Below, one piece after another: positions 5,162 through 64,000 of a stretch of 64,000 nucleotides of DNA (position 1 is its first letter; every line of letters begins with the position of its first letter). The translations under genes were made by a program, and so were the position numbers. The stretch covers positions 471 to 64,470 of the forward strand of contig VBID01000114.1 in assembly GCA_005880615.1 (NCBI GenBank), read 5' to 3'. Source of the stretch: Chloroflexota bacterium (GTDB lineage Bacteria > Chloroflexota > Dormibacteria > CF-121). The notes under the pieces are model-generated. The model was not told the DNA's origin. It did no database searches and worked only from the letters and a program-made list of their open reading frames with translations.

Positions 5162-6230
5162 CCGCGCCCCATTCGCGACCGCCGACCCGGACGCGGTCGC
5201 CCGGTTTTTGACGGCCGGCGGGGAGCCCGCATACCGCGCCGACCAGGCGCGGACCTGGTTCTGGCGGCAGCTGGCGCCCTCCTTCGAGGCCATGCGGACG
5301 CTCTCGCCGGCGGCGCGGGCCCAGCTGGCCGGGGGCTACACCTTTTCCACGGTCGCTGAACACCGCAAGCGGGAGGCTGACCGCGGGGCCACCGTCAAAT
5401 ACTTGTTCCGGCTTCAGGATGGGCGCACCATCGAGACGGTGGTGATGCACTATCCGGCGACCGAGCGCGGACGCGCCCGGACCACGGTCTGCGTCAGTTC
5501 GCAGGTCGGTTGTCCCATTGGCTGCACCTTCTGCGCCACTGGCCAGTCCGGCTTCGACCGCAACCTGACCGAGGCCGAGATCGTCGACCAGTTCCTGGCC
5601 GCCAGCCGGGGACTGAAGGCGCAACAGCGCGCTCTGACCAACGTGGTTTTCATGGGCATGGGCGAGCCCCTGAACAACTACGCAGCCGTGGTGGCGGCCA
5701 TCCGGCGCTGGGCACGGCCGGACACACTGAAATTCAGTCCGCGACGGGTGACGATCTCGACCATCGGACTGGTGCCGTTCATCGAGCGGCTGGCGGCGGA
5801 GAACCTTCCGGTCAATCTGGCCATCTCCCTGCACGCCCCGGACGACGCGTTGCGCTCGTCGATGATCCCGGTCAATCGGAAATACCCGATCGCCGCGGTG
5901 GTCGCGGCGGCCCGGGCGCATGCCGAGCGGACCGGGCGGCGCAACAGTTATGAGTACGTGATGCTGGCCGGGGTCAATGACAGCTCGGAACAGGCCGGCC
6001 GCCTGGCGTCCGTGATCGGGCGCCACCTGACCCACGTCAACCTGATCCCGATGAATCCGGTGGAGGGCAGCCCGCTGCATCGGCCGAGTCGCGACCGCAC
6101 CCTCGCCTTCCAGCGCATTCTGCAGGCAGCCGGAATCTCGACCACCATTCGCGATACGCGGGGACTGGACATCGACGCCGCCTGCGGCCAGCTCCGGGCA
6201 CGAGAGCTGGCTCCCACGCCCGCAGGATAG
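5139..6230 (+). CDS. rlmN: 23S rRNA A2503 C2-methyltransferase (radical SAM)
   Basis: CVSSQVGCPIGCTFC, FMGMGEP, DIDAACGQL; start uncertain. Confidence 0.95.
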   Translation: MAIVATTDRAPFATADPDAVARFLTAGGEPAYRADQARTWFWRQLAPSFEAMRTLSPAARAQLAGGYTFSTVAEHRKREADRGATVKYLFRLQDGRTIETVVMHYPATERGRARTTVCVSSQVGCPIGCTFCATGQSGFDRNLTEAEIVDQFLAASRGLKAQQRALTNVVFMGMGEPLNNYAAVVAAIRRWARPDTLKFSPRRVTISTIGLVPFIERLAAENLPVNLAISLHAPDDALRSSMIPVNRKYPIAAVVAAARAHAERTGRRNSYEYVMLAGVNDSSEQAGRLASVIGRHLTHVNLIPMNPVEGSPLHRPSRDRTLAFQRILQAAGISTTIRDTRGLDIDAACGQLRARELAPTPAG

Positions 6231-7144: not shown

Positions 7145-7788
7145 TCGTTTCGCCATCGCTCCTGTCGGCCGACTTCAGTCGGCTGGGGGAGGAGGTCGCC
7201 GCGCTGGAAGCGGCCGGCGCCGACTGGATCCACTTCGACGTGATGGACGGCCACTTCGTGCCCCCCATCACCATCGGTCCGATGGTGATCAAGCAGTGCC
7301 GGCGCTATGCCAGGATCCCCTTCGATGTGCACCTGATGATCGAGGCGCCGGAGCGGACCCTCGGAGACTACGCCGACGCCGGGGCGACGACGCTCTCGGT
7401 CCACGTCGAGTCGACCCGCCACATCCACCGGACGCTAGAGCTGATCCGCACGGCCGGCATGCGTCCGGGCGTGTGCCTCAATCCCGGGAGCCCGTTGGAC
7501 CTGGTGGCGCCGGTCCTCCCGTTGGCCGACCTGCTGGTGGTGATGGGCGTCAACCCGGGGTGGGGCGGCCAACCGTTCATCGACTCCACGCCCGAGCGGG
7601 TCCGGGCCGCCCGCCAACTGGCGGACCGCCTGCATCCCACGCTGGACATCGAGGTCGACGGCGGCGTCAACCTGGAGACCGGGCGGAAAGTTTCGACCGC
7701 GGGCGCCACGGTGCTGGTGGCGGGGCACTTCACCTTCAGCCACCCGAACGGCGCCAAGGCCGCCATCGCCCAGTTACACGGCCTTTAG
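7141..7788 (+). CDS. rpe: Ribulose-phosphate 3-epimerase
   Basis: SPSLLSADF, HFDVMDGHFVP, DVHLM, VDGG. Confidence 0.96.
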   Translation: MIVSPSLLSADFSRLGEEVAALEAAGADWIHFDVMDGHFVPPITIGPMVIKQCRRYARIPFDVHLMIEAPERTLGDYADAGATTLSVHVESTRHIHRTLELIRTAGMRPGVCLNPGSPLDLVAPVLPLADLLVVMGVNPGWGGQPFIDSTPERVRAARQLADRLHPTLDIEVDGGVNLETGRKVSTAGATVLVAGHFTFSHPNGAKAAIAQLHGL

Positions 7789-49418: not shown

Positions 49419-50253
49419 GGCGCCGTCGCCGGCCGGCCGGGCCAGCCTGCTCCCCCGGATCGGCAGCGCCGCCCTGCTGCTGGCCGCGGTCCTGGCCGCC
49501 CTGATTGCCGGGTCGGTCTGGGCCTACGCGGCGACCGCGGTGCTCCTGGGCGCGGCCCTCTTCGAGTATCGGCAGCTGACCCGGGCCCTCCAGGCGCCGG
49601 CGCCCTGGTGGCTGCTGTTCCCGCTCAGTTACGCGCTCTTGTTGCGCGACCGCTGGCCGGCGCCGGTGGACCTGGCGCTGTTGCTGGCCGCCGCCACGGT
49701 CATGGGACTGGGAGCCATGGTCTTCCTGCGCGACTGGAGCCAGAGCTTTTTCCGCTGGGCCCTGGCGATCGGAGGCAGCCTCTACCTGGGATTCCTCCTG
49801 AGCTACTACCTGGCGCTCTACTTCCTCCACCAGCCCGATCCGAACCACCTGGGCTTCGGCACCGTGATCTTCACCCTGGGGGCGGTCTTCGTGGGCGACA
49901 CGGCCGCCCTGCTGGCCGGGAGCCGGTTTGGCCGGCACCCATTCTTCCCCCGGATCAGCCCCAAGAAGACTGTGGAGGGCGCGGTCGCCGAGGTGATCGC
50001 CAGCATGCTCCTCTTCGGGCTGTTCTCACCGCTGGTCAATATCTGGTTCCCACACAACCTGATCCTGGGGCTGCTGATTGGGATCGTGGCCCAGGTCGGG
50101 GACCTGGTCGAATCGCAGCTCAAGCGCGCGGCCGGAGTGAAGGACGCCAGCCACTTGATCCCGGGCCACGGTGGCATCCTGGACCGGATCGATTCGGTGC
50201 TGCTGGTTGGCGTGGTGGTCTACTACTATCTGCGCGCCTTCCACCTGGGATGA
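49393..50253 (+). CDS. cdsA: Phosphatidate cytidylyltransferase (probable ATC start)
   Basis: GDTAAL, ISPKKTVEG, GDLVESQLKR, KDASHLIPGHGGILDRIDS; AGGAGGT 5 nt before the ATC. Confidence 0.92.
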   Translation: MEPARSTAEAPSPAGRASLLPRIGSAALLLAAVLAALIAGSVWAYAATAVLLGAALFEYRQLTRALQAPAPWWLLFPLSYALLLRDRWPAPVDLALLLAAATVMGLGAMVFLRDWSQSFFRWALAIGGSLYLGFLLSYYLALYFLHQPDPNHLGFGTVIFTLGAVFVGDTAALLAGSRFGRHPFFPRISPKKTVEGAVAEVIASMLLFGLFSPLVNIWFPHNLILGLLIGIVAQVGDLVESQLKRAAGVKDASHLIPGHGGILDRIDSVLLVGVVVYYYLRAFHLG

Positions 50254-51407
50254 CGCGCCCCAAGCGCCTGGCGCTGCTGGGAGCCACCGGCTCCATCGGC
50301 CGGCAGGTTTGCGAGATCGTCCAGCGCTACCCGGAGCGGTTCGCCCTGCATGCCATGGTGGCCGGACGAGACCGGGCGGCCCTACGCGACCTGGCGGCGG
50401 CGCATCCCAGCGCGCACACCCGGCTGGCGACGCCCGGCGACGGTGACCCAGAGGCGGCCGCGGCGGCCATCGATGAGCTCGTCCGGGACCCCGAGGTGGA
50501 TCTGGTGGTGGTGGCCATCGCCGGCAGCGCCGCCCTGCGGCCGACCCTGGCCGCCCTGGAGGCGGGCAAGGACGTCGCCCTGGCGACCAAGGAAGTGCTG
50601 GTCATGGCCGGGGACCTGGTCCGCCAGCGTATGCAGCGGCACCACTCCCGGCTGCTGCCCATCGACAGCGAGCACTCCGCCATCTGGCAGTGCCTGTGGG
50701 GCGAGCAGCGGGCGTCCGTACGCCGGCTGATCCTGACCGGGTCCGGCGGCCCCTTCTTGCGTCGCCCCCTGGAGACCCTGTCGGCGGCGACCGTCGACGA
50801 GGCGTTGCAGCACCCGCGCTGGAAGATGGGCCCCAAGATCACCGTCGACAGCGCGACCATGATGAACAAGGGGCTGGAGATGATCGAGGCGCACTACCTC
50901 TTCGATGTCGGGTACCCGGACATCGAGGTGGTCATCCACCCCGAGGCGGTGGTGCACTCCATGGTGGAGTTCGTGGACGGGAGCGTGAAGGCCCAGCTCG
51001 GGGTGCCCGATATGCGTCTGCCCATCGCCGTGGCCCTGGCCTATCCCGATCGGATCCCCGACATCGTCCCCCCGCCCGATCTGACGGCGATCAAGGCGCT
51101 CACCTTTGAGCCCGTTGATCCGCAGCGATTTCCGGCGCTGGCCCTGGCCCGTACGGCTGCCCAGCATGGGAGCGTGGCCACCGCGGTCCTCAATGCCGCC
51201 AACGAAGAGGCGGTGGCGGCCTTCCTCCGGGGGCGCTTGGGGTTCACCCGGATCGTCGCCACCGTCCAGGAGGCGGTGGCCCGGGAGCCTCGGTCGGTGG
51301 CCGAGGACCTGGAGGCGATCCTGGGGGCGGACCGGCGCGCCCGGCAGTTCGTTCGAAAGGTCAGCGGGGCCGATTCCGACATACTGGAACGGAGGCTCCC
51401 GGCATGA
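50250..51407 (+). CDS. dxr: DXP reductoisomerase
   Basis: [29 protein letters not shown]. Confidence 0.96.
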
Positions 51408-52429
51408 ACCCAGTCCTGCTCGTCGTGGTCGTCGGCCTCGTATTCAGCTTGATCGTGGTGGTGCACGAGGCTGGCCACTTCCTGACGGCCAAGGCGGTGG
51501 GCATCAAGGTCGACCAGTTCAGCGTCGGCTTCGGCCCCCGGCTCTTTGGGGTCACCCGCGGCGAGACGACTTATGCCGTCCGCGCCCTGCCCCTGGGCGG
51601 GTTCGTGAAGCTGGCCGGCATGGATCCCTCAGAGCAGGCCGGGCCCCGCGGGTTCAACGCCCACCCACTCTGGCAGCGGCTGCTGGTCATCGTGGCCGGG
51701 CCGGTCCTGAATCTGGTGCTGCCGGTGGTCCTGTTCGCGGCCGTCTACGCCGTCGGATCGCCGGTCCAGGTGGTGAGCGTCGACAGCGGCACGCCCGCCC
51801 AGGCGGCCGGCGTCCAGGCGGGCGATGTCATCGTGGCCGTCAATGGCCACCGGGTGCAGCAGCAAAGCGACCTGCGCGCCGTGGTCACCGCCGCCGGCCA
51901 GGCCGGCGAGCCGGTGCAGTTGCAGGTGAGCCGGCACGGGCAGCTGCTGGCCTTCACCATAACGCCGATGAAGCGGGACCCGGGATACATCCTGGGCGTG
52001 CGGACCAGCCCCGGCGTCAAACAACTGTCGCCGCCCTACGCGGTCTCCCAATCGGTCACGGATACCGCCGGCCTAGTGGTCGGCACCTTCCAGGGCTTCT
52101 ACCGGCTGGCGACGGATAAGTCGCTGGGTGGCTTCTTCGGCCAGAATGGCATCCGCGGTCCGGTCGGCATCATGAAAACCACCGCCGATGAGGCTCGCGG
52201 CGGGCCGGTGCCCCTTACATTCTGGATTGGGTTCCTGAGCCTGAGCCTGGGGCTGATCAACATCCTGCCCTTCCCGGCGCTGGATGGCGGGCGGCTGGTG
52301 TTCCTGTTCTTGGAGGGCATCCGGGGCCGGCCGGTCGATCCGATGCGCGAACAGATGGTGCATTATGTCGGGCTGGCCATCCTGTTCGGGTTCATCGCGC
52401 TGGTAACCTTCAACGACGTGTTCAGGTGA
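51404..52429 (+). CDS. rseP: RIP metalloprotease with PDZ domain
   Basis: [23 protein letters not shown]. Confidence 0.93.
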
Positions 52430-52433
52430 TGAC

Positions 52434-53531
52434 ATGAGACCCCGACGGAAGTGTCAGCCGGTGCGGGTCGGTGACGTCATCGTGGGGGGCGCCGCGCCCA
52501 TCGTGGTGCAGTCCATGACCAAGGCGGACACCCGCGACGCCGCTGCCACCCTGGAGGAGATCGCCCGGCTGAAGGACGTCGATTGCCGGATCGTGCGGGT
52601 GGCGGTGCCCACCCGGGAAGCGGCCGAGGCCATGATCGAGATCAAGCGCAAGTCGCCGCTGCCCATCATCGCCGACATTCACTACGACTACCCGCTGGCT
52701 CTGCTGGCCATGAAAGCCGGCGTGGACGGCCTGCGCCTGAACCCCGGGAATATCCGCGATCCCGACAAGGTCAAGGAGATCACGGCCATGGCCAAGGAGC
52801 GGGACATCCCCATTCGGATCGGCGTCAACTCCGGCTCCCTGCCCGGCCGGCCGAAAGAGGGGGAGGGGAGGCGCCCGCCCCTAGATCAGGTGGTGGAAGC
52901 CATGGTCAGCGCGGCCCTCGGCCACATCCGCATCCTGGAGTCGCTCGACTTCAACCAGATCAAGGTCTCCATGAAGGCGTCCGACCCGCCCACCATGATC
53001 GCGGCCAACCGGGCCATCGCCGGTAAGATCTACTACCCGCTGCACCTGGGCGTGACCGAGGCCGGCCCGCCCGGAACGGGCTCGGTGAAGAGTGCGGTCG
53101 GCATCGGCGTCCTGCTGGAGGAAGGGATCGGTGACACCATCCGGGTGTCGCTGGCCGGCGATTCCGTGCAAGAAGTCGAGGTCGGCTACGGCATCGTGAA
53201 TGCCCTCTCCGAGAAACCGACCGGCCCGAACCTGATCGCCTGTCCCATGTGCGGCCGCCTGGAGATTGACATGCTGCCCATGGTGGCCGAGGTAGAGAAG
53301 GCGCTGAAGAAGATCAAGCGGCCGATCAACGTCTCGGTGATGGGCTGCGTGGTCAACGGCCCTGGTGAAGGCCAGCACGCGGACATCGGCATCGCCGGGG
53401 GGAAGGGCAAAGGCATCCTGTTCAAGCACGGGAAGATCGTGGGCACCTTCCCGGAAAAGGAACTGGTGCCAGCCTTGCTGCGCGAGCTGGATGCCATCGC
53501 CCGCGAAGACGAGCAAAAGCTGGCGTCCTAG
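52434..53531 (+). CDS. ispG: HMBPP synthase
   Basis: VQSMT, RLNPGN, HLGVTEAG, CPMCGR, MGCVVNGPGE. Confidence 0.97.
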   Translation: MRPRRKCQPVRVGDVIVGGAAPIVVQSMTKADTRDAAATLEEIARLKDVDCRIVRVAVPTREAAEAMIEIKRKSPLPIIADIHYDYPLALLAMKAGVDGLRLNPGNIRDPDKVKEITAMAKERDIPIRIGVNSGSLPGRPKEGEGRRPPLDQVVEAMVSAALGHIRILESLDFNQIKVSMKASDPPTMIAANRAIAGKIYYPLHLGVTEAGPPGTGSVKSAVGIGVLLEEGIGDTIRVSLAGDSVQEVEVGYGIVNALSEKPTGPNLIACPMCGRLEIDMLPMVAEVEKALKKIKRPINVSVMGCVVNGPGEGQHADIGIAGGKGKGILFKHGKIVGTFPEKELVPALLRELDAIAREDEQKLAS

Positions 53532-53561
53532 CCCCCTTCGGGTGGTCGCCCGAAATGCCAG

Positions 53562-54044
53562 CTACAGCTGTGGTGTCGGTGGCAGGGATACGGTCGGGGT
53601 GGGCAGCGGGAGTGGAGTCGGGGTGGGCAGCGGGAGTGGGGTCGGCGTGGGTAGGGGTAGCGGGGTCGGCGGGGGGGGCACTGATATGCCTGTCGGCGTC
53701 GGGAGCGGGTTAGCCGTCGGGGACGGTCCCGGGACGCTGGGGTTGTTCGGGCTCGCCGACGCAGTAGGCGTCGGGACGACCGGGGTGCCGCTCGTCGCGC
53801 TGGGCCCCGGGCTGGCCGTCGCCGGAGCGGCGTCGTGCCGGGCATCGGCGATGACCCGCGCCGACAGCGGCGCCAGCTGGCCGCTGCCGTGGCCGCTGTA
53901 GCCGGGCGCGGTCAGCACGTGGACGTTGACTGGCAGCGCCAGGGTCGTCGGAGCGGCCGATCCGCGCAGAGCCGCCAGCCAGAATGCCGGGCCCAGGCAC
54001 AGGGCGGCAGCCAGCGGAACGGCCCAGTGGGTGGCCCGCCTCAT
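53562..54044 (-). CDS. Membrane-anchored Pro/Thr-stalk protein A (partner of the HD-GYP gene)
   Basis: N-terminal TM ending LAALR, motif PLSARVIADARHD, PT-rich tail; ATGA overlap with the HD-GYP stop. Confidence 0.8.
   Translation of the reverse strand: MRRATHWAVPLAAALCLGPAFWLAALRGSAAPTTLALPVNVHVLTAPGYSGHGSGQLAPLSARVIADARHDAAPATASPGPSATSGTPVVPTPTASASPNNPSVPGPSPTANPLPTPTGISVPPPPTPLPLPTPTPLPLPTPTPLPLPTPTVSLPPTPQL
53593..53664 (-). repeat. 3 x 24-bp tandem repeat encoding PLPLPTPT-type units
   Basis: GTCGGGGTGGGCAGCGGGAGTGG(A/G) twice plus one degenerate copy. Confidence 0.85.
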
Positions 54045-55720
54045 GATGCCTTGATCTCCTCGACGATGGCGGCGATCGCCTGGCGACGGGCCGCGAATGC
54101 GGTCACGACGTCGGGGTCATAGCGCACCCCGGACTCGACGATGATCGCCCGGGTGGCGGCTTCCGGGCTCAGCGCCCGCCGGTACGGTCGCTCCGACGTC
54201 AGGGCATCAAAGACGTCGGCCACGGTCAGGATGCGGACCAGCAGCGGGATGCCCGAGCCGGCGATGCCGTCCGGATAGCCCGCGCCATCCCAGCGCTCGT
54301 GATGATGCAGCACACCGGGCAGGCTGGGCTGGAGGAAGCGCAGGCCTTTCAGCATCTCGTACCCGATGCGGGGGTGCTCCTGCATGGTGCCCGCCTCTTC
54401 GTCATTGAGCTGGGTCGGCTTGTGCAGCACGCGGTCGGCAATGCCGATCTTGCCGATGTCGTGCAGCAGGGCCGACCGCCGCAGCGCCAGGCGTGCCCCG
54501 GGATCCAGTCCCAGGGCCGCCGCGATCTCCGCGCTGATAGCAGCCACGCGTTCGGAATGGCCGAAGGTATACGGATCCCGCGCGTCGATGGCCCGGGCCA
54601 GGGCTTCCATGCTGCTGAAGTAGATCTCCTCCAGCTGTCCCGTCTTGTCGGCCAGGCTGGCGGCCATATGGTTGAACGACTGGGCCAGCGAGCCGATCTC
54701 GTCCCGGGAGCGCACCCGGGCTCGGTAGGCGAGGTCCCCGGCGGCAATCACTCGGGTGGCCGTGGCCAGCTCCTCCACCGGCCTGGTGATCCACCAGGCC
54801 ACCAGCGCGCCCGCCAGCAGCGTGAGCAGCCCAGCCGCGGCGAAGATGGCCGTCAGCAGCACGCGCAGCTGCGCCAGCAGGGCGGTCAGGCCGTCGGCAT
54901 TCAGGGACGTTCCCAGATAGCCCAGCTGGTGCCCGCGCAGCGTCCAGTCACTGAAGAGGGTGCCGACCTGGTGACCCTCACGGACCTCCATGACCCGGAT
55001 CGCCTGGCCGGCGGTGACCTGCTGGCGGACGGCTTGATTGAGGGAGCGGGCGGCCGGCAGGGTTGAGCTCAAGAGGCTGCCGTGGCCGTCGTAGAACGAA
55101 GACCCGGGGATGCTATGGGCGACGTCAGCCACGGACTCCCCGATTAGGATGGCGCCCACCACCTGGACCCGGCTGTTCCAGACCGGTCCGATCCAGTAGA
55201 GCTCGGGCTGGGGCAGCCCGGCGTCCAGAAAGACGTTGCGCTCGCCCATCCCATCGGTTCGTCCCGCCAGTGCATCCTGGACGGGGGGAAGCGGAGACAG
55301 CTGGGAGTCGATGTTTGGCAGGGTGACGGGCCCCCCGGGGCTGCCCAGGACCCCGAGCAGCTGGTGTCCGCCCCGGTCCAGGACGCGAAGCTCAAGATTG
55401 GCCGGTGTCGTGTTGCCGGCCAGCGGCGTGAGCAGCCGGGCCAGGGTCCTGCCATCGCCGCCGGCCACCGCTTCCGGAACGCCCAGGGTGTCGGTGGCCG
55501 CCCGCAGCTGGGCCAGCCGGTCGGTTTCGAGGACCTCCAGCCGATCGTTGGCCAGCAGGCTGGCGCGCAGCAGGCCGGCATCGAACTCGGCGGCGGCGGC
55601 GAGCGACAGCCGGGCCGTCGCTAGCCAAGTTCCCAGGACGCCCACCAGTAGCAGGACCACGAAGAAGGGGAGGATGATCTTGGCGCGGATCGGTAGGTAC
55701 ACGGGGTCCGACACGATCAT
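54041..55720 (-). CDS. Sensor HD-GYP c-di-GMP phosphodiesterase (TM, Cache-like, TM, HAMP, HD-GYP)
   Basis: DPYTFGHSERV, LLHDIGK, HHERWDGAGYP, ADVFDAL, RPY; HAMP ITRPVEEL..DEIG; ATG at 55720 chosen. Confidence 0.92.
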   Translation of the reverse strand: MIVSDPVYLPIRAKIILPFFVVLLLVGVLGTWLATARLSLAAAAEFDAGLLRASLLANDRLEVLETDRLAQLRAATDTLGVPEAVAGGDGRTLARLLTPLAGNTTPANLELRVLDRGGHQLLGVLGSPGGPVTLPNIDSQLSPLPPVQDALAGRTDGMGERNVFLDAGLPQPELYWIGPVWNSRVQVVGAILIGESVADVAHSIPGSSFYDGHGSLLSSTLPAARSLNQAVRQQVTAGQAIRVMEVREGHQVGTLFSDWTLRGHQLGYLGTSLNADGLTALLAQLRVLLTAIFAAAGLLTLLAGALVAWWITRPVEELATATRVIAAGDLAYRARVRSRDEIGSLAQSFNHMAASLADKTGQLEEIYFSSMEALARAIDARDPYTFGHSERVAAISAEIAAALGLDPGARLALRRSALLHDIGKIGIADRVLHKPTQLNDEEAGTMQEHPRIGYEMLKGLRFLQPSLPGVLHHHERWDGAGYPDGIAGSGIPLLVRILTVADVFDALTSERPYRRALSPEAATRAIIVESGVRYDPDVVTAFAARRQAIAAIVEEIKAS

Positions 55721-55825
55721 CTCGATGACGGGTTGCGCCGCGAGTTTCGTCCTGCCCAAATCGGCCGGCTGAATGGCGCAGCCAGGCCGGCCGAATGGCC
55801 TACTGCCCGTATAATCGTCAGCCAC

Positions 55826-57280
55826 ATGCCGGCCGGCAGTGACGACGGGTTCGTCAAGGACATCCGCAAACAGTCTCAGGACTTCCCGGGCTGGTACAAC
55901 GACGTGGTCCGCAAGGCCGAGCTGGCGGACAACTCACCCGTCGCCGGGTCCATGGTCATCCGCCCGTATGGGTATTCGCTCTGGGAAAACATCCGTGACC
56001 CGCTGGACGCGCTGATCAAGCAAACCGGCCACGAGAACTGGTACTTTCCCGCCCTGATCCCGCTGAGCTTCCTGCAGAAAGAGAAGGAGCATGTGGCGGG
56101 CTTTGCGCCCGAGTTTCAGCTGGTGACCCATGGCGGTGGCAAGGAACTCGAGGAACCGCTCGTCCTGCGGCCGACCTCCGAGACCATGATCGCCAGCGTC
56201 CTGCGAAATTACATCCAGTCGTACCGCGACCTGCCAGTGCTCACCAACCAGTGGAACAACGTCTTCCGCTGGGAGTTGCGCACCCGGTTCTTCCTGCGCA
56301 CTCGCGAGTTTCTATGGCAGGAGGGGCATACCTTCCACGAGACGGCCGCGGAGGCCGAGGAAGAGGTTGACCGGATGCTGGAGTGCTACCGCCAGATCTG
56401 TGAGGACTGGTGCGCCATGCCGGTCTTCCTGGGCCGGAAGTCCGAAACCGAAAAGTTCGCCGGGGCCCAGTACTCCACCGCGGTGGAGGCCATGATGAAG
56501 GATGGCAAGGCGCTCCAGGCCGGCACCTCGCACTACTTCGGGCAGAATTTCACGCGGGCGTACGACCTGACCTTCACTGACCGGTCCAACCAGCGGGAGC
56601 ATCCCCACTCCACCAGCTGGGGCATGTCCACCCGGATGGTGGGGGCCGTGGTGATGGCCCATGGCGACGATTTCGGGCTGCAGCTCCCGCCGCGCATCGC
56701 GCCGATCCAGGTGGTGGTCGTCCCGATTTTTCGGACTGAGGACGAAAAGTCTCAGATCCAGGAAGCACTGGGTCCGGCGCTGCATCCCGCCGCCGGCGTC
56801 CGCGTCAAGGTCGACTGGCGGGATGAGCGGCCCGGCTTCAAGTTCAACGAATGGGAGCTCAAGGGCGTCCCCCTGCGCATCGAGGTGGGGCCTCGCGACC
56901 TGGCCAAGGGGGAGGTCCTCCTGGTCCGCCGCCTCGACCGGAGCAAGAAGGAGTCCGTGCCGCTGCTCATGCTAAAGAGCCGGCTGCCGGAGGCGCTGAG
57001 CGAGATCCAGCAAGCCATGTATGCGCGAGCGCTGCAGTTCCGGACCGAGCACACCGTGCGCCTCGACTCGCTGGCCGCCATGGTCGATTTCTTCGAGCAT
57101 CGGATCGGGTTCGTGATCACGCCCTGGTGCGGCCGCGCCGAGGACGAGAAGCTGGTGCAGGAACGGACCGGCGGCGCCACCACGCGCGTCATCCCCAAGA
57201 ACGCGGCCAAGCCGGCCGGAGCCTGCGCCGTCTGTGGCACGCCCGCCGTCAGCGACGTCATCTGGGCGAAGGCCTATTAG
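55826..57280 (+). CDS. proS: Proline-tRNA ligase (archaeal/eukaryote-like type)
   Basis: LRPTSET, FLRTREFLWQEGHT, ALQAGTSH, C-terminal WAKAY. Confidence 0.96.
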   Translation: MPAGSDDGFVKDIRKQSQDFPGWYNDVVRKAELADNSPVAGSMVIRPYGYSLWENIRDPLDALIKQTGHENWYFPALIPLSFLQKEKEHVAGFAPEFQLVTHGGGKELEEPLVLRPTSETMIASVLRNYIQSYRDLPVLTNQWNNVFRWELRTRFFLRTREFLWQEGHTFHETAAEAEEEVDRMLECYRQICEDWCAMPVFLGRKSETEKFAGAQYSTAVEAMMKDGKALQAGTSHYFGQNFTRAYDLTFTDRSNQREHPHSTSWGMSTRMVGAVVMAHGDDFGLQLPPRIAPIQVVVVPIFRTEDEKSQIQEALGPALHPAAGVRVKVDWRDERPGFKFNEWELKGVPLRIEVGPRDLAKGEVLLVRRLDRSKKESVPLLMLKSRLPEALSEIQQAMYARALQFRTEHTVRLDSLAAMVDFFEHRIGFVITPWCGRAEDEKLVQERTGGATTRVIPKNAAKPAGACAVCGTPAVSDVIWAKAY

Positions 57281-57362
57281 CCGGCGTCGGCCTAGCGCGT
57301 GCGGCAGCCGGCCCGGCGCGTCTCCATAATTTGGGTACAAACACTCAAGAGGACCGATACCC

Positions 57363-59510
57363 ATGCAATTCGCCGATCTGGTTGCCAAGGTGGGATACCT
57401 GCCGCCGCAGGATCTGGAGGTCCTCTCGCGTGCCTATGAGACGGCCGCCAGCGCCCACCACGACCAGAACCGGCTCTCGGGCGAAAAGTTCATCGAACAC
57501 CCCCTAGCGGTGGCCGCCATCCTGGCCGATCTGCAGATGGACCGCGACACGCTGGCCGCGGCCATCCTGCACGACACCGTGGAGGACACCCACTTGACGG
57601 TGCAGGACCTGGAGCAGAGCTTCGGCCCCACCGTGGGCAAGCTGGTGGCGGGCGTCACCAAGCTGGAGCGGATCTCGTTCCACAGCCAGGAGCAAGCGCA
57701 GGCCGAGAACGTCCGCAAGATGCTGGTGGCCATGGCCGAAGACATCCGGGTGGTGCTGACCAAGCTGGCCGACCGGCTTCACAACATGCGCACCGTGAAC
57801 TTCCTGCCCCAGGAGCGCCGCAAGGCCATGGCGCAGGAGACGCTCGACATCTACGCCCCGCTGGCCCACCGGCTGGGCATGTGGGGCATCAAGTGGGAGC
57901 TGGAAGACCTCTCCTTCGCCGAGCTCCACCCCGACAACTACCAGGACATCGTCAAGAAGATCGCGCGCAAGCGAAAGGAACGCGAGGCCTACGTCAACGA
58001 CGTCACCGAGATCCTGCAGCGCGAGCTGACCGCGGTCGGGATCAAGGCCGAGACCACCGGCCGGCCGAAGCACGTCTACAGCATCGCCAACAAGCTGGCC
58101 CTGGGCAAAGACTTCGACGAGATCTACGACCTCTCCGCCATCCGGGTGCTAACAGATTCGATCAAAGATTGCTACGGCGCCCTGGGGGTCATCCACTCGC
58201 TCTGGAAGCCGATCCCCGGTCGGTTCAAGGACTACATCGCCATGCCCAAGTCCAACGGGTACCAGTCACTGCACACGACCGTGGTCAGCCACACCGGAGA
58301 GCCGATGGAGATCCAGATCCGGACCCAGGAGATGCACCGGACCGCCGAGTGGGGCGTGGCTGCCCACTGGACATACAAGGAAGGGGCCGGGAAGGACGAG
58401 CGCAAGCTGGACCAGCGGTTCGCCTGGCTGCGCCAGCTGATGGACTGGCAGAAGGAGGTCCTGGACGCCGAGAAGTTCGTGGACGCGGTCAAGGTCGATG
58501 TCTTCCAGGACGAAGTGTTCGTCTTTACGCCGAAGGGCGACGTCCTGGCCCTGCCATCGGGCGCCACCACCGTCGATTTTGCCTACCGCATTCACACCGA
58601 GGTGGGCCACCACTGCATCGGCGCCAAGGTCAACAACCGCATGGTTCCGCTGGACCACGCCCTGGAAAACGGCGACATCGTGGAGATCGTCACCTCACGC
58701 GGCCCCCACGGCCCGAGCCGCGATTGGCTGAGCTTTGTCAAGACCGCCGGCGCGGCGCAAAAAATCCGGGCGTGGTTCAAGAAGGAGCGGCGCGAAGAGA
58801 ACATCACCAAAGGCAAGGAGTTGCTGGACAAGGAGTTCCGCCGGATGCAGCAGCGACCGATTGCCTCCTTGAGCGAAGCGCAACTGCTAGAGCTGGCGAA
58901 GGAATTCCGATTCAACGACCTGACCGACTTCTACGCGGCCATCGGCTACGGTGACGTCAGCCCATACGCCGTGCTGGTGAAGGCGGCCGCCGGCGACCAG
59001 CCGGACAGCAGCGGGGAGTTCCCGCTCATCCCCTTCGTCCCCCAGTTCAAGCCGACCGGGGAGGTGCGGGTCAAGGGCGAGAGCGGTGTCCTCTCCCAGA
59101 TCGCACGCTGCTGCAAGCCGGTTCCCGGGGACGCCATCGCCGGCTACATCACCCGCGGCAAGGGCATCAGTGTGCACCGGGCATCCTGTCCGAACATTGT
59201 CAATGCCCAAAGCCGGGAACGGCTGGTGGACGTGGAGTGGGATACCGGAGGCCGGCAGCTCTACCAGGTTGGCATCAAGATCGAGGCCTGGGACCGCACC
59301 GGCTTGCTACGCGACATCGCCACGGTCATCGCCGAAAACAAGATCAACCTCACCGGAGCCGAGGTCCAGGTCTACGACGATAAGACGGCGGTGATCTCGA
59401 CCACCGTGGAGATCAATAGCCTCACGCAACTGAGCCGGCTGATGGAGCGGCTGGAGACGGTCAAGGACGTGCACACCGTTGCCCGGGAAGGAAACCTGGC
59501 TGCCAGTTAG
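57363..59510 (+). CDS. rel: Bifunctional (p)ppGpp synthetase/hydrolase (long RSH)
   Basis: LHDTVEDT, KLADRLHNMRT, YQSLHT, EIQIRT, TGS (VFTPKG), CC-containing segment (CCKPVPGD), ACT. Confidence 0.97.
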   Translation: MQFADLVAKVGYLPPQDLEVLSRAYETAASAHHDQNRLSGEKFIEHPLAVAAILADLQMDRDTLAAAILHDTVEDTHLTVQDLEQSFGPTVGKLVAGVTKLERISFHSQEQAQAENVRKMLVAMAEDIRVVLTKLADRLHNMRTVNFLPQERRKAMAQETLDIYAPLAHRLGMWGIKWELEDLSFAELHPDNYQDIVKKIARKRKEREAYVNDVTEILQRELTAVGIKAETTGRPKHVYSIANKLALGKDFDEIYDLSAIRVLTDSIKDCYGALGVIHSLWKPIPGRFKDYIAMPKSNGYQSLHTTVVSHTGEPMEIQIRTQEMHRTAEWGVAAHWTYKEGAGKDERKLDQRFAWLRQLMDWQKEVLDAEKFVDAVKVDVFQDEVFVFTPKGDVLALPSGATTVDFAYRIHTEVGHHCIGAKVNNRMVPLDHALENGDIVEIVTSRGPHGPSRDWLSFVKTAGAAQKIRAWFKKERREENITKGKELLDKEFRRMQQRPIASLSEAQLLELAKEFRFNDLTDFYAAIGYGDVSPYAVLVKAAAGDQPDSSGEFPLIPFVPQFKPTGEVRVKGESGVLSQIARCCKPVPGDAIAGYITRGKGISVHRASCPNIVNAQSRERLVDVEWDTGGRQLYQVGIKIEAWDRTGLLRDIATVIAENKINLTGAEVQVYDDKTAVISTTVEINSLTQLSRLMERLETVKDVHTVAREGNLAAS

Positions 59511-59596
59511 CCGGTGAAGACTGGCATGGACGTGGTGACTTTAGGCATTCCGTAACGGCGTGCGCCTAGCATCGGCGTGGCCAAAGGGGCCGACCC

Positions 59597-60181
59597 ATGG
59601 GTGCCACCTCCAATCCTCGCCGCGCGCTGGCCGGATACCTGACGGTAGCGGCCGGCATCGCCCTGCTGTTCGGGGTGGTGGCGCTGGCCGCTCTCCGTCC
59701 CGCGGACGGGCTGGCCTGGGTCCGGCTGCCCCAGCTGGGCGCCGACTTCGGACTCGATCCCGGCCTGAAGACTCGACCGCTGCGCTCGACCATCGTTGCC
59801 GAGGCGTTACAGGATCGCCTCGACAGCTCAACAGGCCCCGAGGCGAGTCTCGTTATTCCTCCGATCCTGGCCATGACCCCGCCCAACGCCGTCCCCAGCG
59901 CGGCTGGTCCGGGAAGACCGGTGGCTGTCGTGAAGCCAGTACCCAACCCGAGCGCCGCGCCGAGCCCCACGCCAATCCCCACGGCCAGCCCCACGCCAAT
60001 CCCCACGGCCAGCCCCACGCCAATCCCCACGGCCAGCCCCACGGCCAGCCCCACGGCCAGCCCCACGGCCAGCCCCACGGCCAGCCCCACGCCTGCCCCA
60101 ACGCCGGCTCCAACTCCCTCGCCGACTCCATGCAACCGGGGTGGCGGCGCCGGCGCCGGCACTGGAAACTGCAAACGGTGA
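59597..60181 (+). CDS. Membrane-anchored Pro/Thr-stalk protein B (partner of the diguanylate cyclase gene)
   Basis: N-terminal TM ending LAALR, motif PLRSTIVAEALQD, PT-rich tail, C-terminal Cys pair; GTGA overlap with the cyclase. Confidence 0.8.
   Translation: MGATSNPRRALAGYLTVAAGIALLFGVVALAALRPADGLAWVRLPQLGADFGLDPGLKTRPLRSTIVAEALQDRLDSSTGPEASLVIPPILAMTPPNAVPSAAGPGRPVAVVKPVPNPSAAPSPTPIPTASPTPIPTASPTPIPTASPTASPTASPTASPTASPTPAPTPAPTPSPTPCNRGGGAGAGTGNCKR
59963..60082 (+). repeat. Perfect tandem repeat: 3 x 24 bp plus 4 x 12 bp
   Basis: AGCCCCACGCCAATCCCCACGGCC x3 (SPTPIPTA) then AGCCCCACGGCC x4 (SPTA). Confidence 0.95.
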
Positions 60182-62874
60182 GGGCGGTGAGGCTGACCCA
60201 GCTGATCAGCCGGCTGCCCGGCTTGCCCTCCCTTCGTATCCGGACCCAGATCATTGCCCCCTTCCTACTATTGATGGTGATCCTGGGAATCGTGGGGACC
60301 TATCTCACCACCAGCCTGGTGGCCAGTTCGCTGGAGCAACGGATCGCCGGCCAGCTGGTCCAAGCGCAGGACGCGGCCTTGGATGGCGCGGCCAACCTTC
60401 AGGCCCGCCAGGTGGCCGCTATCCGGCTGGTCGCCAACACGGAGGGGGTCGACGCGGCGATCCTCCGGGCTGATCAACCCGCCCTGAAACAGCTGGTCGT
60501 GCCAATCGAGGTCAACAACCGGTTGGGAAGCGTGAAGATCTTCGATGTCCAGGGCCGCACGCTGCTCGAGATCGAGCAACCGAACCCGGCCAACCCGGGT
60601 GGCCTCACCTTCCAGAGCGGCACCGACCTGTCCGCAGAGCCGCTGATCGCCCAGGTGCTGCATGGGAACTACGACGCCCTGGGCGACAAGTGGGTGGGGT
60701 ACGCGGGCAGCCCGCCCTCGACCCTGGCGGCCGCCGGACCGGTCCTCAGCCACGACCAGGTGGTGGGTGGCATCTTGCTGGAGACCCCCCTGTCCTGGGC
60801 GCTGGCCGAGATGCGGAGCAAAGCCATGGCCGACGTGGTGCTGCTCGATCAAAACGGGCAGCTGCTCGGGTCCACCCTCCCCGGCGTGGGCAAAGACGTG
60901 CTGGACGAGCGCACCCGCTCCTACCTGGGCCTGGCGTCGCCCGGCCGGGCCGCTCGCCGCACCCTCGATGTGGGCCAGCACCCCTATGAGTTCCAGTTTT
61001 CGTTGTTCTACCTGCGGCAGCGCCCGGTGGGCTTCCTGGCTGTCGCCCTCTCACGCCAGACCGTGGTGGACGCGGGCGTCCGCTCAGCCCTGCAGATGAC
61101 CATCCTCTTCACCGCCGTGGTGCTGCTCCTGCTCATCATCGGGTACATCCTGGCACTTCGGATCACGCGCCCCATCGACGACCTGGTGGCCGGCACCGCG
61201 GCCGTGGCCCGCGGCGAGCTCGGCCGCCGTCTGCAGGTCCGACGGCGGGATGAACTGGGACATCTGGCCGACTCCTTCAATGCCATGACCGAGGACCTGC
61301 AGGAGCGGACACGCGACCTGCACGAGCAGATGGGCCGCCTGGCTGCCCTACATCAGACCCGCGTGGGATTGGGACGCCGGGGGGAACCCGCGGAGATGGC
61401 CGAGGCCATTCTGGGGGTTAGCCTCAAGGCCCTGGGGATCGAAACCGCACTCCTCCTGTCCCGCAACCGGGAGACTCAGCGGGTTGAGCCCCGTGCGTTG
61501 GTGGGTTTTGGGGCAGACTCGGCCGACCTGCTGCACCGCTTCGAGCAGGTCGACCTGGCGGAAGGGTTCGATCTGGAACGTGAGACCGACATCGAGACCG
61601 TCGAGGACCCCTCACTGGACGGCCGACCCGCCCTGCGGCTCTTCGGTCAGGCGGCCGGAGTCGACCGCGCCCTGGTGGTGCCCCTCTCCGGCGGCGCCGA
61701 GACGGCCGGCTACCTGCTGCTGGGGGCGCCGGCCGGGTACGTGCCGACCCAGCAGGACGTTGAGGTGCTGCAAACCATCGCCACCGAGGTGGCCCTCATG
61801 GTCGAGAACATCGACCTGCAGCACAAGACCGAGGTGCAGGCCCGCCGGCTCGACCAGGCGATCATCGCCCTGGAGAAGATCTCCCAGGCGCTCACCACGG
61901 TGACGGTTGGCGCGGACAACCTGCTGCGGGCCGTGGCCCGGGCCACCATGGAGATCCTCGAGGTGCCCTACGCCTCCATCCACCTGACCAAACCCGAGTG
62001 GCGCGACCGGTTCGCCGACGTGGCCGTCGGGCCGGTCTCGCGCAGCGAAATGCATGCGGTGCGGGTCAGCGCGGGCGCCCTGTCGCGCCGGATGGCCGGT
62101 TCGGACTCGCTGGTCGAGCTCGACCTGGCTAGTGAGCCTCGTCTGCCGCAGCGTCTGCTGGAAAAGGTGGGACTGCGGCGGGGGGTGGGGGTCTCGATGA
62201 CTCTGGGCGGGGCGGTCGTCGGGACGCTGGCCATTCATATGCGGGAGCCGCGTACCCTGGAGCAGAGCGAGCTGCGGGTGCTCCAGACTCTCGCCAACCA
62301 GGCGGTCATTGCCATCGAGAACGCCTTCTTGTTCGAAGAGACCCGTCACCTGGCCATGACGGACGGGCTGACCGGGGTGGCCAACCATCGTGGCTTTGAG
62401 GCCCGGCTGGAGCGCGAGCTGCAGCGGGCTCGCCGGTCGCGCGAACGGCTGGCCCTGGTGCTCTGCGACCTCGACCATTTCAAGGACATCAACGACACCA
62501 TCGGTCACCTGGCGGGCGACGCGGTACTACGCTACCTCGCCGAACAGGTCCTCACTCCCGAGGTCCGGCCCAAGGACCTGGTCGCCCGCTATGGGGGGGA
62601 TGAGTTCGTGCTGGTTCTCCCAGGGGCAGACGCCCGGGTCGCGGCCGGCGTCGCCGAGCGAATCCGGCAGGCGGCTATGCGGCCGCTGGTCTTCGAGGGC
62701 CGGGTCATCTCGAACCTCTCCATGAGCCTCGGGATCGCCAGCTTTCCGAAAGACGGCGACACGCGCGAAGCCTTGGTGCAGGCGGCCGACCGGGCGCTGT
62801 ACCTGGCCAAGCGCGAGGGGCGCAACCGCATTGCCCGTGCCGATGAGCCCGCCTCGCACGAACGCGCGAGCTAA
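60178..62874 (+). CDS. Sensor diguanylate cyclase (TM, Cache-like, TM, HAMP, GAF, GAF, GGDEF)
   Basis: TDGLTGVAN, DLDHFKDINDTIGH, RPKD I-site, RYGGDEF, ADRALYLAK; GTG at 60178. Confidence 0.93.
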   Translation: MRAVRLTQLISRLPGLPSLRIRTQIIAPFLLLMVILGIVGTYLTTSLVASSLEQRIAGQLVQAQDAALDGAANLQARQVAAIRLVANTEGVDAAILRADQPALKQLVVPIEVNNRLGSVKIFDVQGRTLLEIEQPNPANPGGLTFQSGTDLSAEPLIAQVLHGNYDALGDKWVGYAGSPPSTLAAAGPVLSHDQVVGGILLETPLSWALAEMRSKAMADVVLLDQNGQLLGSTLPGVGKDVLDERTRSYLGLASPGRAARRTLDVGQHPYEFQFSLFYLRQRPVGFLAVALSRQTVVDAGVRSALQMTILFTAVVLLLLIIGYILALRITRPIDDLVAGTAAVARGELGRRLQVRRRDELGHLADSFNAMTEDLQERTRDLHEQMGRLAALHQTRVGLGRRGEPAEMAEAILGVSLKALGIETALLLSRNRETQRVEPRALVGFGADSADLLHRFEQVDLAEGFDLERETDIETVEDPSLDGRPALRLFGQAAGVDRALVVPLSGGAETAGYLLLGAPAGYVPTQQDVEVLQTIATEVALMVENIDLQHKTEVQARRLDQAIIALEKISQALTTVTVGADNLLRAVARATMEILEVPYASIHLTKPEWRDRFADVAVGPVSRSEMHAVRVSAGALSRRMAGSDSLVELDLASEPRLPQRLLEKVGLRRGVGVSMTLGGAVVGTLAIHMREPRTLEQSELRVLQTLANQAVIAIENAFLFEETRHLAMTDGLTGVANHRGFEARLERELQRARRSRERLALVLCDLDHFKDINDTIGHLAGDAVLRYLAEQVLTPEVRPKDLVARYGGDEFVLVLPGADARVAAGVAERIRQAAMRPLVFEGRVISNLSMSLGIASFPKDGDTREALVQAADRALYLAKREGRNRIARADEPASHERAS

Positions 62875-62921
62875 ACCCCGAATCTACGGGGCTAAACCCC
62901 CTTGCTAAGCTTTGGCGAATC

Positions 62922-64000
62922 ATGGCGCCAGTTGCGCAGCGTCCGCGCGGAACGCAGGACATCCTACCGGCGGAGCAACTGTACTGGCAGGAGATGACCG
63001 GCGCCGGCGACGCCATCGCCACCGCCCGCGGATATCAACGTATCGATACGCCGATTTTCGAAGCCACCGCGCTCTTTGTCCGAAGTGCCGGCGAGACGTC
63101 CGACGTGGTGACCAAGGAGATGTACACGTTTCCCGATCGCGGTGGGCGATCGATGACCCTTCGGCCCGAGGGGACCGCTCCCGTGGTCCGCGCCTACTTT
63201 GATGCCGGTCTCGACCGGGAACGCCAGCCGGTGCGCCTCTACTACATCGGGCCGTTCTTCCGGTACGACCGGCCACAAGCCGGCCGTCACCGACAGTTCC
63301 ATCAATTCGGGGTGGAGGTCATTGGGGACGCCGCCCCCAGCCTCGATGTCGAGGTCATCGCCCTCGGCTGGCGCTGGTTCGCGTCGTTGAAGCTCTCGGG
63401 CGTCAGTCTGCAGGTGAACAGCATCGGGGACGGCGCCTGTCGCCCCCGGTATCGCGACGCGCTCCGCGACTATTACCGCCCCTACCTGGATGCCCTGTCG
63501 GAGCAGGATCGAAGCCGCTTCGAGCGAAACCCGCTCCGCCTGCTCGATTCCAAGGATCCCGACGCCGTGGCGCTCCAGGCCAGCGCCCCCAGGACTCTCG
63601 ACTTCCTGTGCGACGCCTGCCGCCAGGCGTTTGAGCAGGTGGAACGCGGCCTCCAGCAAGGTGGTATTCCCTACGTCGTGAATCCACGGTTGGTTCGGGG
63701 GCTCGATTACTACACCAGGACGGCCTTCGAGTTCTGGCACGAAAGCCTTCTTGGCGCGCAAAACTCGTTGGGTGGCGGTGGTCGCTACGACGGTCTGGCG
63801 GCCGACCTCGGCTACCGGGATACCCCTGGGGTTGGCTTTGCCCTGGGCCTAGACCGCACGGCGACGATCCTGAAGGCTGCGGACATCGGTCCTGCCATTT
63901 ACGCGGTTGCGGTTGACGAGTCCGCGTCGCGGCTCATGCAGGAACTCGCGGAAGAATTGCGCCGGCGGGGCCTGGCCGTGATTGTCGATGTCTCGTCGGG
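62922..64000 (+). CDS. hisS: Histidine-tRNA ligase (partial, runs off the window)
   Basis: RPRGTQD, TPIFE, KEMYTF, LRPEGTA, FRYDRPQAGR, LVRGLDYY, GGGRYDGL. Confidence 0.97.
   Translation, partial: MAPVAQRPRGTQDILPAEQLYWQEMTGAGDAIATARGYQRIDTPIFEATALFVRSAGETSDVVTKEMYTFPDRGGRSMTLRPEGTAPVVRAYFDAGLDRERQPVRLYYIGPFFRYDRPQAGRHRQFHQFGVEVIGDAAPSLDVEVIALGWRWFASLKLSGVSLQVNSIGDGACRPRYRDALRDYYRPYLDALSEQDRSRFERNPLRLLDSKDPDAVALQASAPRTLDFLCDACRQAFEQVERGLQQGGIPYVVNPRLVRGLDYYTRTAFEFWHESLLGAQNSLGGGGRYDGLAADLGYRDTPGVGFALGLDRTATILKAADIGPAIYAVAVDESASRLMQELAEELRRRGLAVIVDVSS

Follow-up and report, generated by a model that had tools for sequence, protein, structure and literature searches.

A c-di-GMP phosphodiesterase and a diguanylate cyclase with related Cache sensors, each encoded with a Pro/Thr-stalk membrane protein, in a Dormibacteria genome

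Among the described systems that bear most closely on the locus reported here are YycH and YycI, bitopic accessory proteins that control WalK (PMC7355866, PMC5013275), and RsgI of Bacillus subtilis, whose extracytoplasmic disordered region senses gaps in the cell wall (PMC9732909). The locus lies in a stretch of 64,000 nucleotides (contig VBID01000114.1 of assembly GCA_005880615.1, positions 471 to 64,470 of the forward strand; hereafter the window) from a bacterium of the Chloroflexota assigned to the Dormibacteria, and consists of two modules. One contains the gene of a membrane-bound HD-GYP phosphodiesterase of cyclic di-GMP (c-di-GMP), the other that of a membrane-bound GGDEF cyclase, and each enzyme gene overlaps a small gene for a membrane-anchored protein rich in proline and threonine, termed PT1 in the phosphodiesterase module and PT2 in the cyclase module. 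To our knowledge, the signal input of most membrane-bound c-di-GMP enzymes is unknown, and hardly any signalling has been described in the soil Dormibacteria, which are uncultured and globally abundant. The interest of the locus lies in two uncharacterised protein families, each tied to one of two c-di-GMP enzymes, a phosphodiesterase and a cyclase, whose Cache sensors are related. Comparison of genomes strongly supports the view that this pairing is a conserved genetic unit. Judged by their sequences, the partners are two uncharacterised and undescribed accessory families, and the enzymes belong to known families, of which they are ordinary representatives.

Two enzyme genes and their overlapping partners

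The phosphodiesterase gene (54041–55720, minus strand) encodes 559 amino acids (aa), in which a first transmembrane (TM) segment, a dCache_3-type sensor, a second TM segment, a HAMP domain and an HD-GYP domain follow one another. The TM segments (aa 15–33 and 287–305) enclose an extracytoplasmic sensor of ~250 aa (aa 34–286; 54863–55621, minus strand). Pfam identifies the HAMP domain (PF00672, 7e-18) and, as HD_5, the HD-GYP catalytic domain (PF13487, 8e-40, 136.8 bits; aa 373–538; 54107–54604, minus strand), whose motifs LLHDIGK and HHHERWDGAGYP (HD and HHERWDGAGYP) are complete. By family match and motifs, the protein is a predicted c-di-GMP phosphodiesterase. The exact 559-aa product, with the same start, is stored in public gene calls.

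The cyclase gene (60178–62874, plus strand; 898 aa) encodes a TM segment, a dCache_3 sensor (aa 44–308; 60307–61101, plus strand) that passes the curated cut-off of its family (PF14827, 27.1 vs 25.7 bits), a second TM segment, a HAMP domain, two consecutive GAF domains and a GGDEF catalytic domain (aa 726–884; 62353–62829, plus strand; PF00990, 153 bits, 6e-45). The catalytic region reads RPKD-LVARY-GGDEF, with RxxD five residues before GGDEF, and an I-site is thus present. The intact motif and the family match identify the protein as a predicted diguanylate cyclase, which is 62% identical to its orthologue in Candidatus Dormibacter. A CHASE8 domain was not supported in it (13.7 bits, against a cut-off of 27). 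The genes and domains of both enzymes, including the RxxD I-site, are as described in the original prediction, which had been made from the letters of the window alone. In four metagenome contigs the orthologous cyclase is split into two open reading frames (ORFs) at differing positions (L001 3729–6416, L002 2623–5269, L003 3042–5680 and L114 4381–7066); these probably represent assembly frameshifts and not real split genes.

PT1 (53562–54044, minus strand; 160 aa) lies downstream of the phosphodiesterase gene, and its start overlaps the stop of that gene by 4 nt (ATGA, 54041–54044). PT2 (59597–60181, plus strand; 194 aa, ending CNRGGGAGAGTGNCKR) lies upstream of the cyclase gene, and its stop overlaps the cyclase start, likewise by 4 nt (GTGA, 60178–60181). 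Both overlaps had already been pointed out and are present. Each protein has ~7–14 residues before a single N-terminal hydrophobic segment, followed by a conserved extracytoplasmic core and a Pro/Thr-rich tail that consists partly of 24-nt tandem repeats, as determined with TRF. In PT1, which has a short basic N-terminus, the core spans aa 36–72 (53829–53939, minus strand; LPVNVH...GY...LAPLSARVIADARHD), and the stalk contains 3.2 copies of a 24-nt repeat encoding PTPTPLPL units (53592–53669, minus strand). The TM segment and the core are kept in an alignment of PT1 sequences (A4) with a mean column identity of 67%. The core of PT2 (aa 34–75; 59696–59821, plus strand; RPADGLAWV..LGADFGLDPGLKTRPLRSTIVAEALQDR) is marked by invariant W, D, K, P and L columns in the corresponding alignment (A5), and its Pro/Thr/Ala/Ser stalk contains 12/24-nt tandem repeats in 13.2 and 5.5 copies, with PT(P)I/ASPT units (59948–60106, plus strand). 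All partners found in this study share a short basic cytoplasmic tail of ~7–35 residues, one conserved hydrophobic helix, a conserved core and a Pro/Thr-rich stalk, which is ~60–100 aa long in the Dormibacteria and 100–500 aa in a lineage of low G + C content (low-GC lineage) described below. Even in a contig that is 97% identical to the window (L004), PT1 has 152 instead of 160 aa and PT2 166 instead of 194 aa, the latter with a much shorter repeat array and the same C-terminus. Since the copy numbers of the 24-nt repeats differ between such closely related genomes, slippage-driven variation of stalk length is suggested.

The window region has a G + C content of 70% and contains many long spurious ORFs on both strands, and the PT sequences are of low complexity and rich in repeats. 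It was therefore considered whether the small ORFs are no genes at all, being either chance ORFs or part of a cyclase that starts in a frame of 1104 aa. This reading is effectively refuted by the comparative data: both PT1 and PT2 have the highest G + C content at third codon positions (GC3) in the frames given above, their orthologues keep the same frames whereas the alternative frame is not conserved, and hundreds of homologues, whose N-terminal halves are 30–80% identical, occur in the same frame and position. The 1104-aa ORF itself (59560–62874, plus strand), an in-frame extension of the cyclase through PT2, was rejected as the cyclase gene on the basis of GC3 and the orthologue frames. 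Other long ORFs between 50000 and 64000, in alternative frames or antisense, are by-products of the 70% G + C content and are unsupported by orthologues.

Scans of both partners, of their full-length relatives and of the C-terminal head domains described below against Pfam (E ≤ 0.1 to 10) and NCBIfam yielded no family for the cores, and neither the partners nor relevant accessory proteins of Cache/HD-GYP enzymes were described in the literature searched. The architecture had not been recognised as a described system when it was first noticed, and these searches agree with that assessment. A literature search for the Dormibacterota in connection with c-di-GMP found nothing.

Conservation of the pairing and variation of the partners

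A genome scan with the sensor of the phosphodiesterase retrieved 15 loci, whose enzymes show 37–97% identity. In all 13 Dormibacteria loci that have downstream DNA, a PT1 orthologue follows the HD-GYP gene with a 4-nt overlap; these orthologues have a length of 136–159 aa in twelve loci and of 298 aa in the remaining one (L006). The pair occurs in at least three kinds of neighbourhood: with ispG/proS in the window, with MacB-type ATP-binding cassette transporter genes plus a transposase in L020 and L106, and with a gene for a trypsin-PDZ protein in L023. In view of these different settings, the pair moves as a unit. In the two loci with a transposase, which belong to the main Dormibacteria lineage, the Transposase_mut gene abuts the 3' end of PT1 with an overlap of ~65–70 nt (L020 8374–9540 and L106 3877–5037, both minus strand). 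The PT1 family comprised 117 proteins in a word-indexed search; when 1.84 billion representatives were searched exhaustively with HMMER, it formed 74 clusters at 50% identity.

The pairing extends beyond the Dormibacteria. P0026, an HD-GYP protein from a low-GC genome that is 34% identical to the one in the window, is likewise followed by a gene with a 4-nt overlap. Scanning metagenomes with its sensor revealed ~50 related loci with 43–60% G + C, in which the partner was present wherever downstream sequence exists: it lies directly after the enzyme gene in 35 loci, the two genes overlapping by 4 nt or being 7–11 nt apart, and is convergent to it in 3. The core of these partners encompasses ~70 residues (DSLPVSIRAxSQADYSxD..IPPIxENILxQIIxD..PATGxPQDR..SPVPTMT) and aligns with the core of the Dormibacteria PT1 (..VHGPLVADYRAES..LAPLSPDIxxDASRD) with an hhalign probability of 90% and an E value of 1.4e-6, with no contribution of the TM segment. 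By this criterion, the pairing of HD-GYP enzyme and partner is older than the Dormibacteria. Three apparent fusions of sensor and partner, which were long matches in the exhaustive search (P0327, P0342 and P0345), were rejected as Rosetta-stone evidence, as they are PKD-repeat proteins that match via a repeated short motif. In these proteins the PT1 core profile has additive weak matches to the first strands of the PKD repeats (VADFSA..TEG.APLSVQF.DSS compared with VADYRAES..LAPLSPDI.DAS), a resemblance that may hint at a strand-like motif in the core or be due to chance.

For the cyclase, the order relA-PT2-dCache_3/GGDEF-hisS was found in every locus examined (L001–L003, L024, L025 and L112–L115), and the PT2 orthologue usually overlaps the cyclase start with its stop by 8 nt. 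The adjacency of each enzyme to its own small gene for a membrane-anchored Pro/Thr protein, which had been noticed in the window, thus recurs in all Dormibacteria loci with downstream DNA, in the low-GC loci and in all PT2 loci, and it was not the case in the loci checked that homologous enzymes usually lack such a neighbour.

The C-terminal ends of the partners are variable. No head follows the stalk in PT1 of the window and in most PT1 of the Dormibacteria. In other proteins with a PT1-type core, the stalk carries two or three CarboxypepD_reg/PEGA domains (L006, P0287, P0298 and others), a DNRLRE domain (L034, 2e-34), DUF7507 with SdrD_B and Big_5 (L065), a PKD domain (P0325), a bactofilin-like beta-helix (P0323) or beta domains of no assigned family. 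The PT2 family, retrieved with a profile from which the low-complexity stalk had been omitted, comprises at least 212 proteins, nearly all of 270–300 aa and none with a Pfam domain; the family ends in a two-cysteine domain of ~110 aa. This domain is confidently modelled by AlphaFold2 (AF2) as an Ig/FnIII-like sandwich and has weak structural matches to ApaG, FnIII domains of GH3 proteins and RbmA. PT2 of the window ends where this head begins (..PTPCNRGGGAGAGTGNCKR* vs ..NGNGGNNGHCAQLIVTATG.. in full-length relatives) and retains a short Cys-x13-Cys tail (60100–60181, compared with L001 2903–3736); from the alignment it is a truncated member of the ~280-aa family that has lost the ~110-aa Ig-like head. 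Since L004 has the same truncated end, the truncation is a trait of the lineage and not an assembly error. In the lineage of the window both partners consist of anchor, core and stalk only, and the two modules are 4 kb apart.

In the AF2 model of the PT2-family protein P0030, the TM segment is a helix of 27 residues within a block whose model confidence (pLDDT) is 84–94, and the core (region aa 34–110) is mostly below 50, namely at aa 49–111. The PT2-family core is therefore probably not folded on its own, and conservation of a sequence that does not fold alone would be typical of a segment whose folding takes place on a partner. The same model bears on the possibility that the hydrophobic segment is a cleaved signal peptide, and that the Pro/Thr polypeptide, once released, either acts in the cell wall or is a soluble factor outside the cytoplasm that binds or inhibits the Cache sensor, in the manner of YfiR on YfiN. 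Control of a cyclase by a periplasmic repressor of the YfiR type is known, NCBIfam lists a 'YfiR-like protein-associated' kinase family, and the N-terminus of PT1 combines a basic n-region with a hydrophobic stretch and small residues (..ALRGSAAP..). However, the hydrophobic segments have 19–24 residues with invariant positions (FW..AA and LLFG.VA..AL), which resemble a TM helix more than the h-region of a signal peptide, as does the confidently modelled 27-residue helix, and cleavage is considered improbable.

Sensor paralogy and the relationship of the two modules

The phosphodiesterase and the cyclase are 31% identical over 378 aa (BLASTP, E = 3e-31), and every block of similarity that had been listed by eye in the original prediction lies within this alignment. 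When the extracytoplasmic parts were compared alone, without the TM segments and the HAMP domains, they retained 28% identity over 246 aa (E = 3e-11), which identifies them as paralogous domains of the dCache_3 type. The dCache_3 family (PF14827) has been defined previously (PMC4822843). The phosphodiesterase sensor itself had no direct Pfam match at E ≤ 0.1, but its homologue P0026 matches PF14827, and precomputed matches to this family exist for P0026 and for orthologues of the cyclase. The AF2 model of the cyclase sensor (pLDDT 84.5) shows a double-Cache fold on a long helix, flanked by TM segments. Its best structural matches in a Foldseek search were vpHK1S-Z8 (3lid, E = 4e-10), the sensor of a Vibrio GGDEF-family protein (2p7j), Tlp3, DctB and PctA, and the top matches thus include dCache domains of chemoreceptors; the integrative model of WalK and YycH (9a5d) was also among the structural neighbours. 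By sequence and model, both sensors in the window belong to, or are homologous with, dCache_3, and in the cyclase sensor the model confirms the fold. It is ordinary in c-di-GMP networks for a cyclase and a phosphodiesterase to use one type of sensor. As the two sensors are only ~28% identical outside the membrane, they are old paralogues, and as such they need not read the same cue.

The relationship between PT1 and PT2 is less clear-cut. Both proteins show a collinear pattern in which the TM segment is followed after ~20 aa by AD(Y/L)(R)x(E/D) and, ~5 aa further on, by PL(S/K)xx(I/V)xx(D/E)AxxD. Alignment of the two families with hhalign, which includes the TM helix, gave a probability of 52–53% (E = 1.5e-4), and comparison of the single PT1 sequence with the PT2 alignment recovered a motif of 20 residues at a probability of 0.6%. 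A hidden Markov model (HMM) restricted to the extracytoplasmic core of PT2 was searched against 10,818 sequences, consisting of 10,633 six-frame ORF segments of the window and the fetched loci, among them the true partner genes, and 185 proteins of the PT1 superfamily. Its one non-self match was P0334, a member of that superfamily, at the equivalent position (E = 0.035; LRADYSADARTMLPPLNARIIEDALRDQAL vs ADLRLDAGLQTKPLKNAVVAEALHDQAL in PT2). No PT2 member was recovered by the exhaustive search with the PT1 profile, and the hhalign comparison of the low-GC partner core with PT2 was not significant. A common origin of PT1 and PT2 is only suggested by these comparisons, and is rated somewhat more likely than not.

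Searches with the genes of a Candidatus Dormibacter contig (tblastn) established the order cdsA-dxr-rseP-ispG-[PT1<HD-GYP]-proS-relA-PT2-GGDEF-hisS in the window; the two modules are thus located within a housekeeping block that is conserved. In Candidatus Dormibacter (GCA_039922495.1), the cyclase module occupies the same slot between relA and hisS, ispG is directly followed by proS, and the HD-GYP module is located on a separate contig (L006). The proximity of the modules within 4 kb, seen in the window and in L004, is consequently specific to this lineage. The proposal that the two enzymes form a matched pair that makes and breaks c-di-GMP was not supported, given this occurrence of the cyclase module without an HD-GYP gene between ispG and proS and the low identity of the sensors. 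The gene order within the modules is also opposite, with the enzyme preceding the partner in the HD-GYP module and the partner preceding the enzyme in the GGDEF module, and the modules can be called twins only loosely. The site-2 protease gene rseP, which lies two genes away, was ruled out as a functional link, since the order cdsA-dxr-rseP-ispG-proS-relA is also conserved without the HD-GYP module and thus reflects housekeeping synteny. An Rfam scan of positions 50000–64000 gave no match at E ≤ 0.1, indicating that no riboswitch is present there, and a scan for promoters and terminators found no signal above the shuffled background.

In a search of sequencing runs, the window sequence was present in soil DNA metagenomes only, and its relatives carry the label Candidatus Dormibacteraeota or Limnocylindria. 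The Dormibacteria are a lineage sister to or within the Chloroflexota, in the Terrabacteria group, which contains monoderms and some atypical diderms (PMC10608941), and the host bacterium is probably a monoderm.

A candidate regulatory mechanism and its described counterparts

The best explanation of these findings is that the window carries two independent, conserved two-gene operons in which a dedicated partner regulates a sensor enzyme; as a whole, this explanation is given a probability of about 0.55. In each enzyme, an extracytoplasmic double-Cache (dCache_3) input would be wired via the HAMP domain to the output, which is HD-GYP in one case and GAF-GAF-GGDEF in the other, and each enzyme gene would be translationally coupled to that of an accessory protein that is bitopic, with the N-terminus inside and the C-terminus outside. 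The TM helix and the core of the partner would dock on the cognate enzyme, either at its TM bundle or at its membrane-proximal Cache module, and bias HAMP signalling, much as YycH and YycI act on WalK (PMC7355866, PMC5013275), so that regulation would run from the partner to the activity of the enzyme. The TM segment and the core are conserved, the core is probably unfolded when alone, and the stalk is variable; this pattern therefore fits a binding module. The disordered stalk may reach into or through the cell wall and report wall state, surface contact or, as has been shown for the disordered region of RsgI (PMC9732909), wall porosity. We estimate that its ~70–90 residues could span ~20 nm if extended. 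In relatives, the exchangeable beta-sandwich heads would be shown at the surface and could add further inputs.

Several observations weigh against this explanation. The linkage in an operon does not in itself prove contact and fits co-expressed envelope proteins that do not interact equally well, PT1 might lose its hydrophobic N-terminal segment by signal-peptide cleavage, as discussed above, and a role as sensor head is not directly applicable to the partners in the window, since both lack a head. In one low-GC sublineage, partner-like genes are located in an operon with an extracytoplasmic function (ECF) sigma factor gene, convergent to the HD-GYP gene. Candidatus Dormibacter furthermore has a second dCache-HAMP-HD-GYP paralogue (37% identical) whose gene is convergent to the partner gene and which itself lacks a partner. 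Because of these two cases, the core family is neither obligatory for nor exclusive to the enzymes. In L078 (1070–3620, minus strand), and likewise in L072, two core-bearing genes are preceded by the ECF sigma factor gene (Pfam Sigma70_r2, 1e-17) and by a gene for a putative membrane-bound anti-sigma factor, and in view of this position the core family may also serve sigma/anti-sigma signalling. The second HD-GYP paralogue is located at 7603–9357 in L006 and at 5319–7076 in L023, in both cases on the minus strand.

An alternative role of the stalk proteins would be that of co-expressed envelope or surface proteins, for example wall-spanning tethers or adhesin-like proteins, that act as outputs, cargo or localisers and do not regulate the activity of the enzyme, with dCache_3 sensing small ligands alone. 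Small molecules are the usual ligands of dCache domains, the structures that best match the sensor are ligand-binding domains of chemoreceptors, and the heads found in relatives (CarboxypepD_reg, PKD, SdrD_B, Big_5 and DNRLRE) have folds typical of surface or adhesion proteins. Conservation in the partners, however, is highest in the TM helix and the short juxtamembrane core and not in the stalk or the heads; the heads are dispensable, as their absence from the window and from most PT1 of the Dormibacteria demonstrates. Moreover, deeply diverged pairs and pairs in differing neighbourhoods still have the 4-nt overlap, an arrangement that suggests co-translation in stoichiometric amounts. A purely envelope-related role is thus possible, though not probable; if the partners were such passive proteins, the finding would reduce to a lineage-specific operon of ordinary enzymes.

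A further-reaching form of the regulatory explanation is tentative and on the whole unlikely to hold in full. It posits a split receptor, widespread in the Chloroflexota and the Dormibacteria, in which the stalk proteins are the true inputs and the TM segment and core serve as an adaptor that plugs different probes into dCache_3-HAMP enzymes. These probes would be either a bare disordered stalk that threads through the wall or a stalk with varied beta-sandwich heads. The phosphodiesterase and cyclase modules would then descend from one ancestral pair of sensor and partner and provide push-pull control of c-di-GMP by the state of the wall or surface.

Among described systems, YycH/YycI-WalK of the Bacillota shares with the locus N-terminally anchored bitopic accessory proteins that are encoded in an operon with a membrane sensor, comprising an extracytoplasmic PAS/Cache-type domain and a HAMP domain, and that modulate this sensor (PMC7355866, PMC5013275). 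Only this topology is common to both: YycH/YycI domains are absent, as no partner had a Pfam match, a short core with a disordered stalk takes the place of folded domains, and the output is c-di-GMP turnover and not a histidine kinase. The membrane HAMP-GGDEF cyclase of YfiBNR (DgcN/TpbB) has a periplasmic domain that is controlled by a dedicated co-encoded accessory protein, but YfiR is soluble and periplasmic and YfiB an OmpA-like lipoprotein, neither of which resembles the stalk proteins, and the sensor in the window is dCache_3 instead of CHASE8. The comparison with YfiBNR and CdaA-CdaR drawn in the original prediction therefore stands as an analogy, whereas membership in these systems does not, the partners matching no Pfam or NCBIfam family. 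For the dCache_3 family, which includes vpHK1S-Z8 (PDB 3lid), no partner protein is described in the literature searched, and in this respect the enzymes of the window differ from their relatives. TonB, the name automatically assigned by JGI to many PT2-family proteins because of their proline run, also has an N-terminal membrane anchor and a proline-rich spacer. PT2 and its full-length relatives, however, have no Pfam match to TonB_C and no ExbBD context, and the C-terminus of the relatives is Ig/FnIII-like; the TonB identity was accordingly rejected as an artefact of low complexity.

RsgI of the SigI/RsgI systems resembles the partners in that it crosses the membrane once and has a disordered or Pro/Thr-rich region outside the cytoplasm. 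The exchangeable C-terminal sensing heads of clostridial RsgI proteins are a further likeness. The partners differ from RsgI in that their few cytoplasmic residues contain no anti-sigma domain by Pfam, no SEAL/autoproteolysis domain was detected, and any signal from them would need to be handed on laterally to an enzyme that is a protein in its own right. In parallel to RsgI, the combination of a conserved membrane anchor with a Pro/Thr stalk that is disordered and surface domains that can be exchanged suggests a modular input from the envelope or surface into second-messenger turnover. The system is best regarded as a variant of those in which a sensor enzyme is controlled by a dedicated bitopic accessory protein, with control presumably exerted through the membrane anchor and core.

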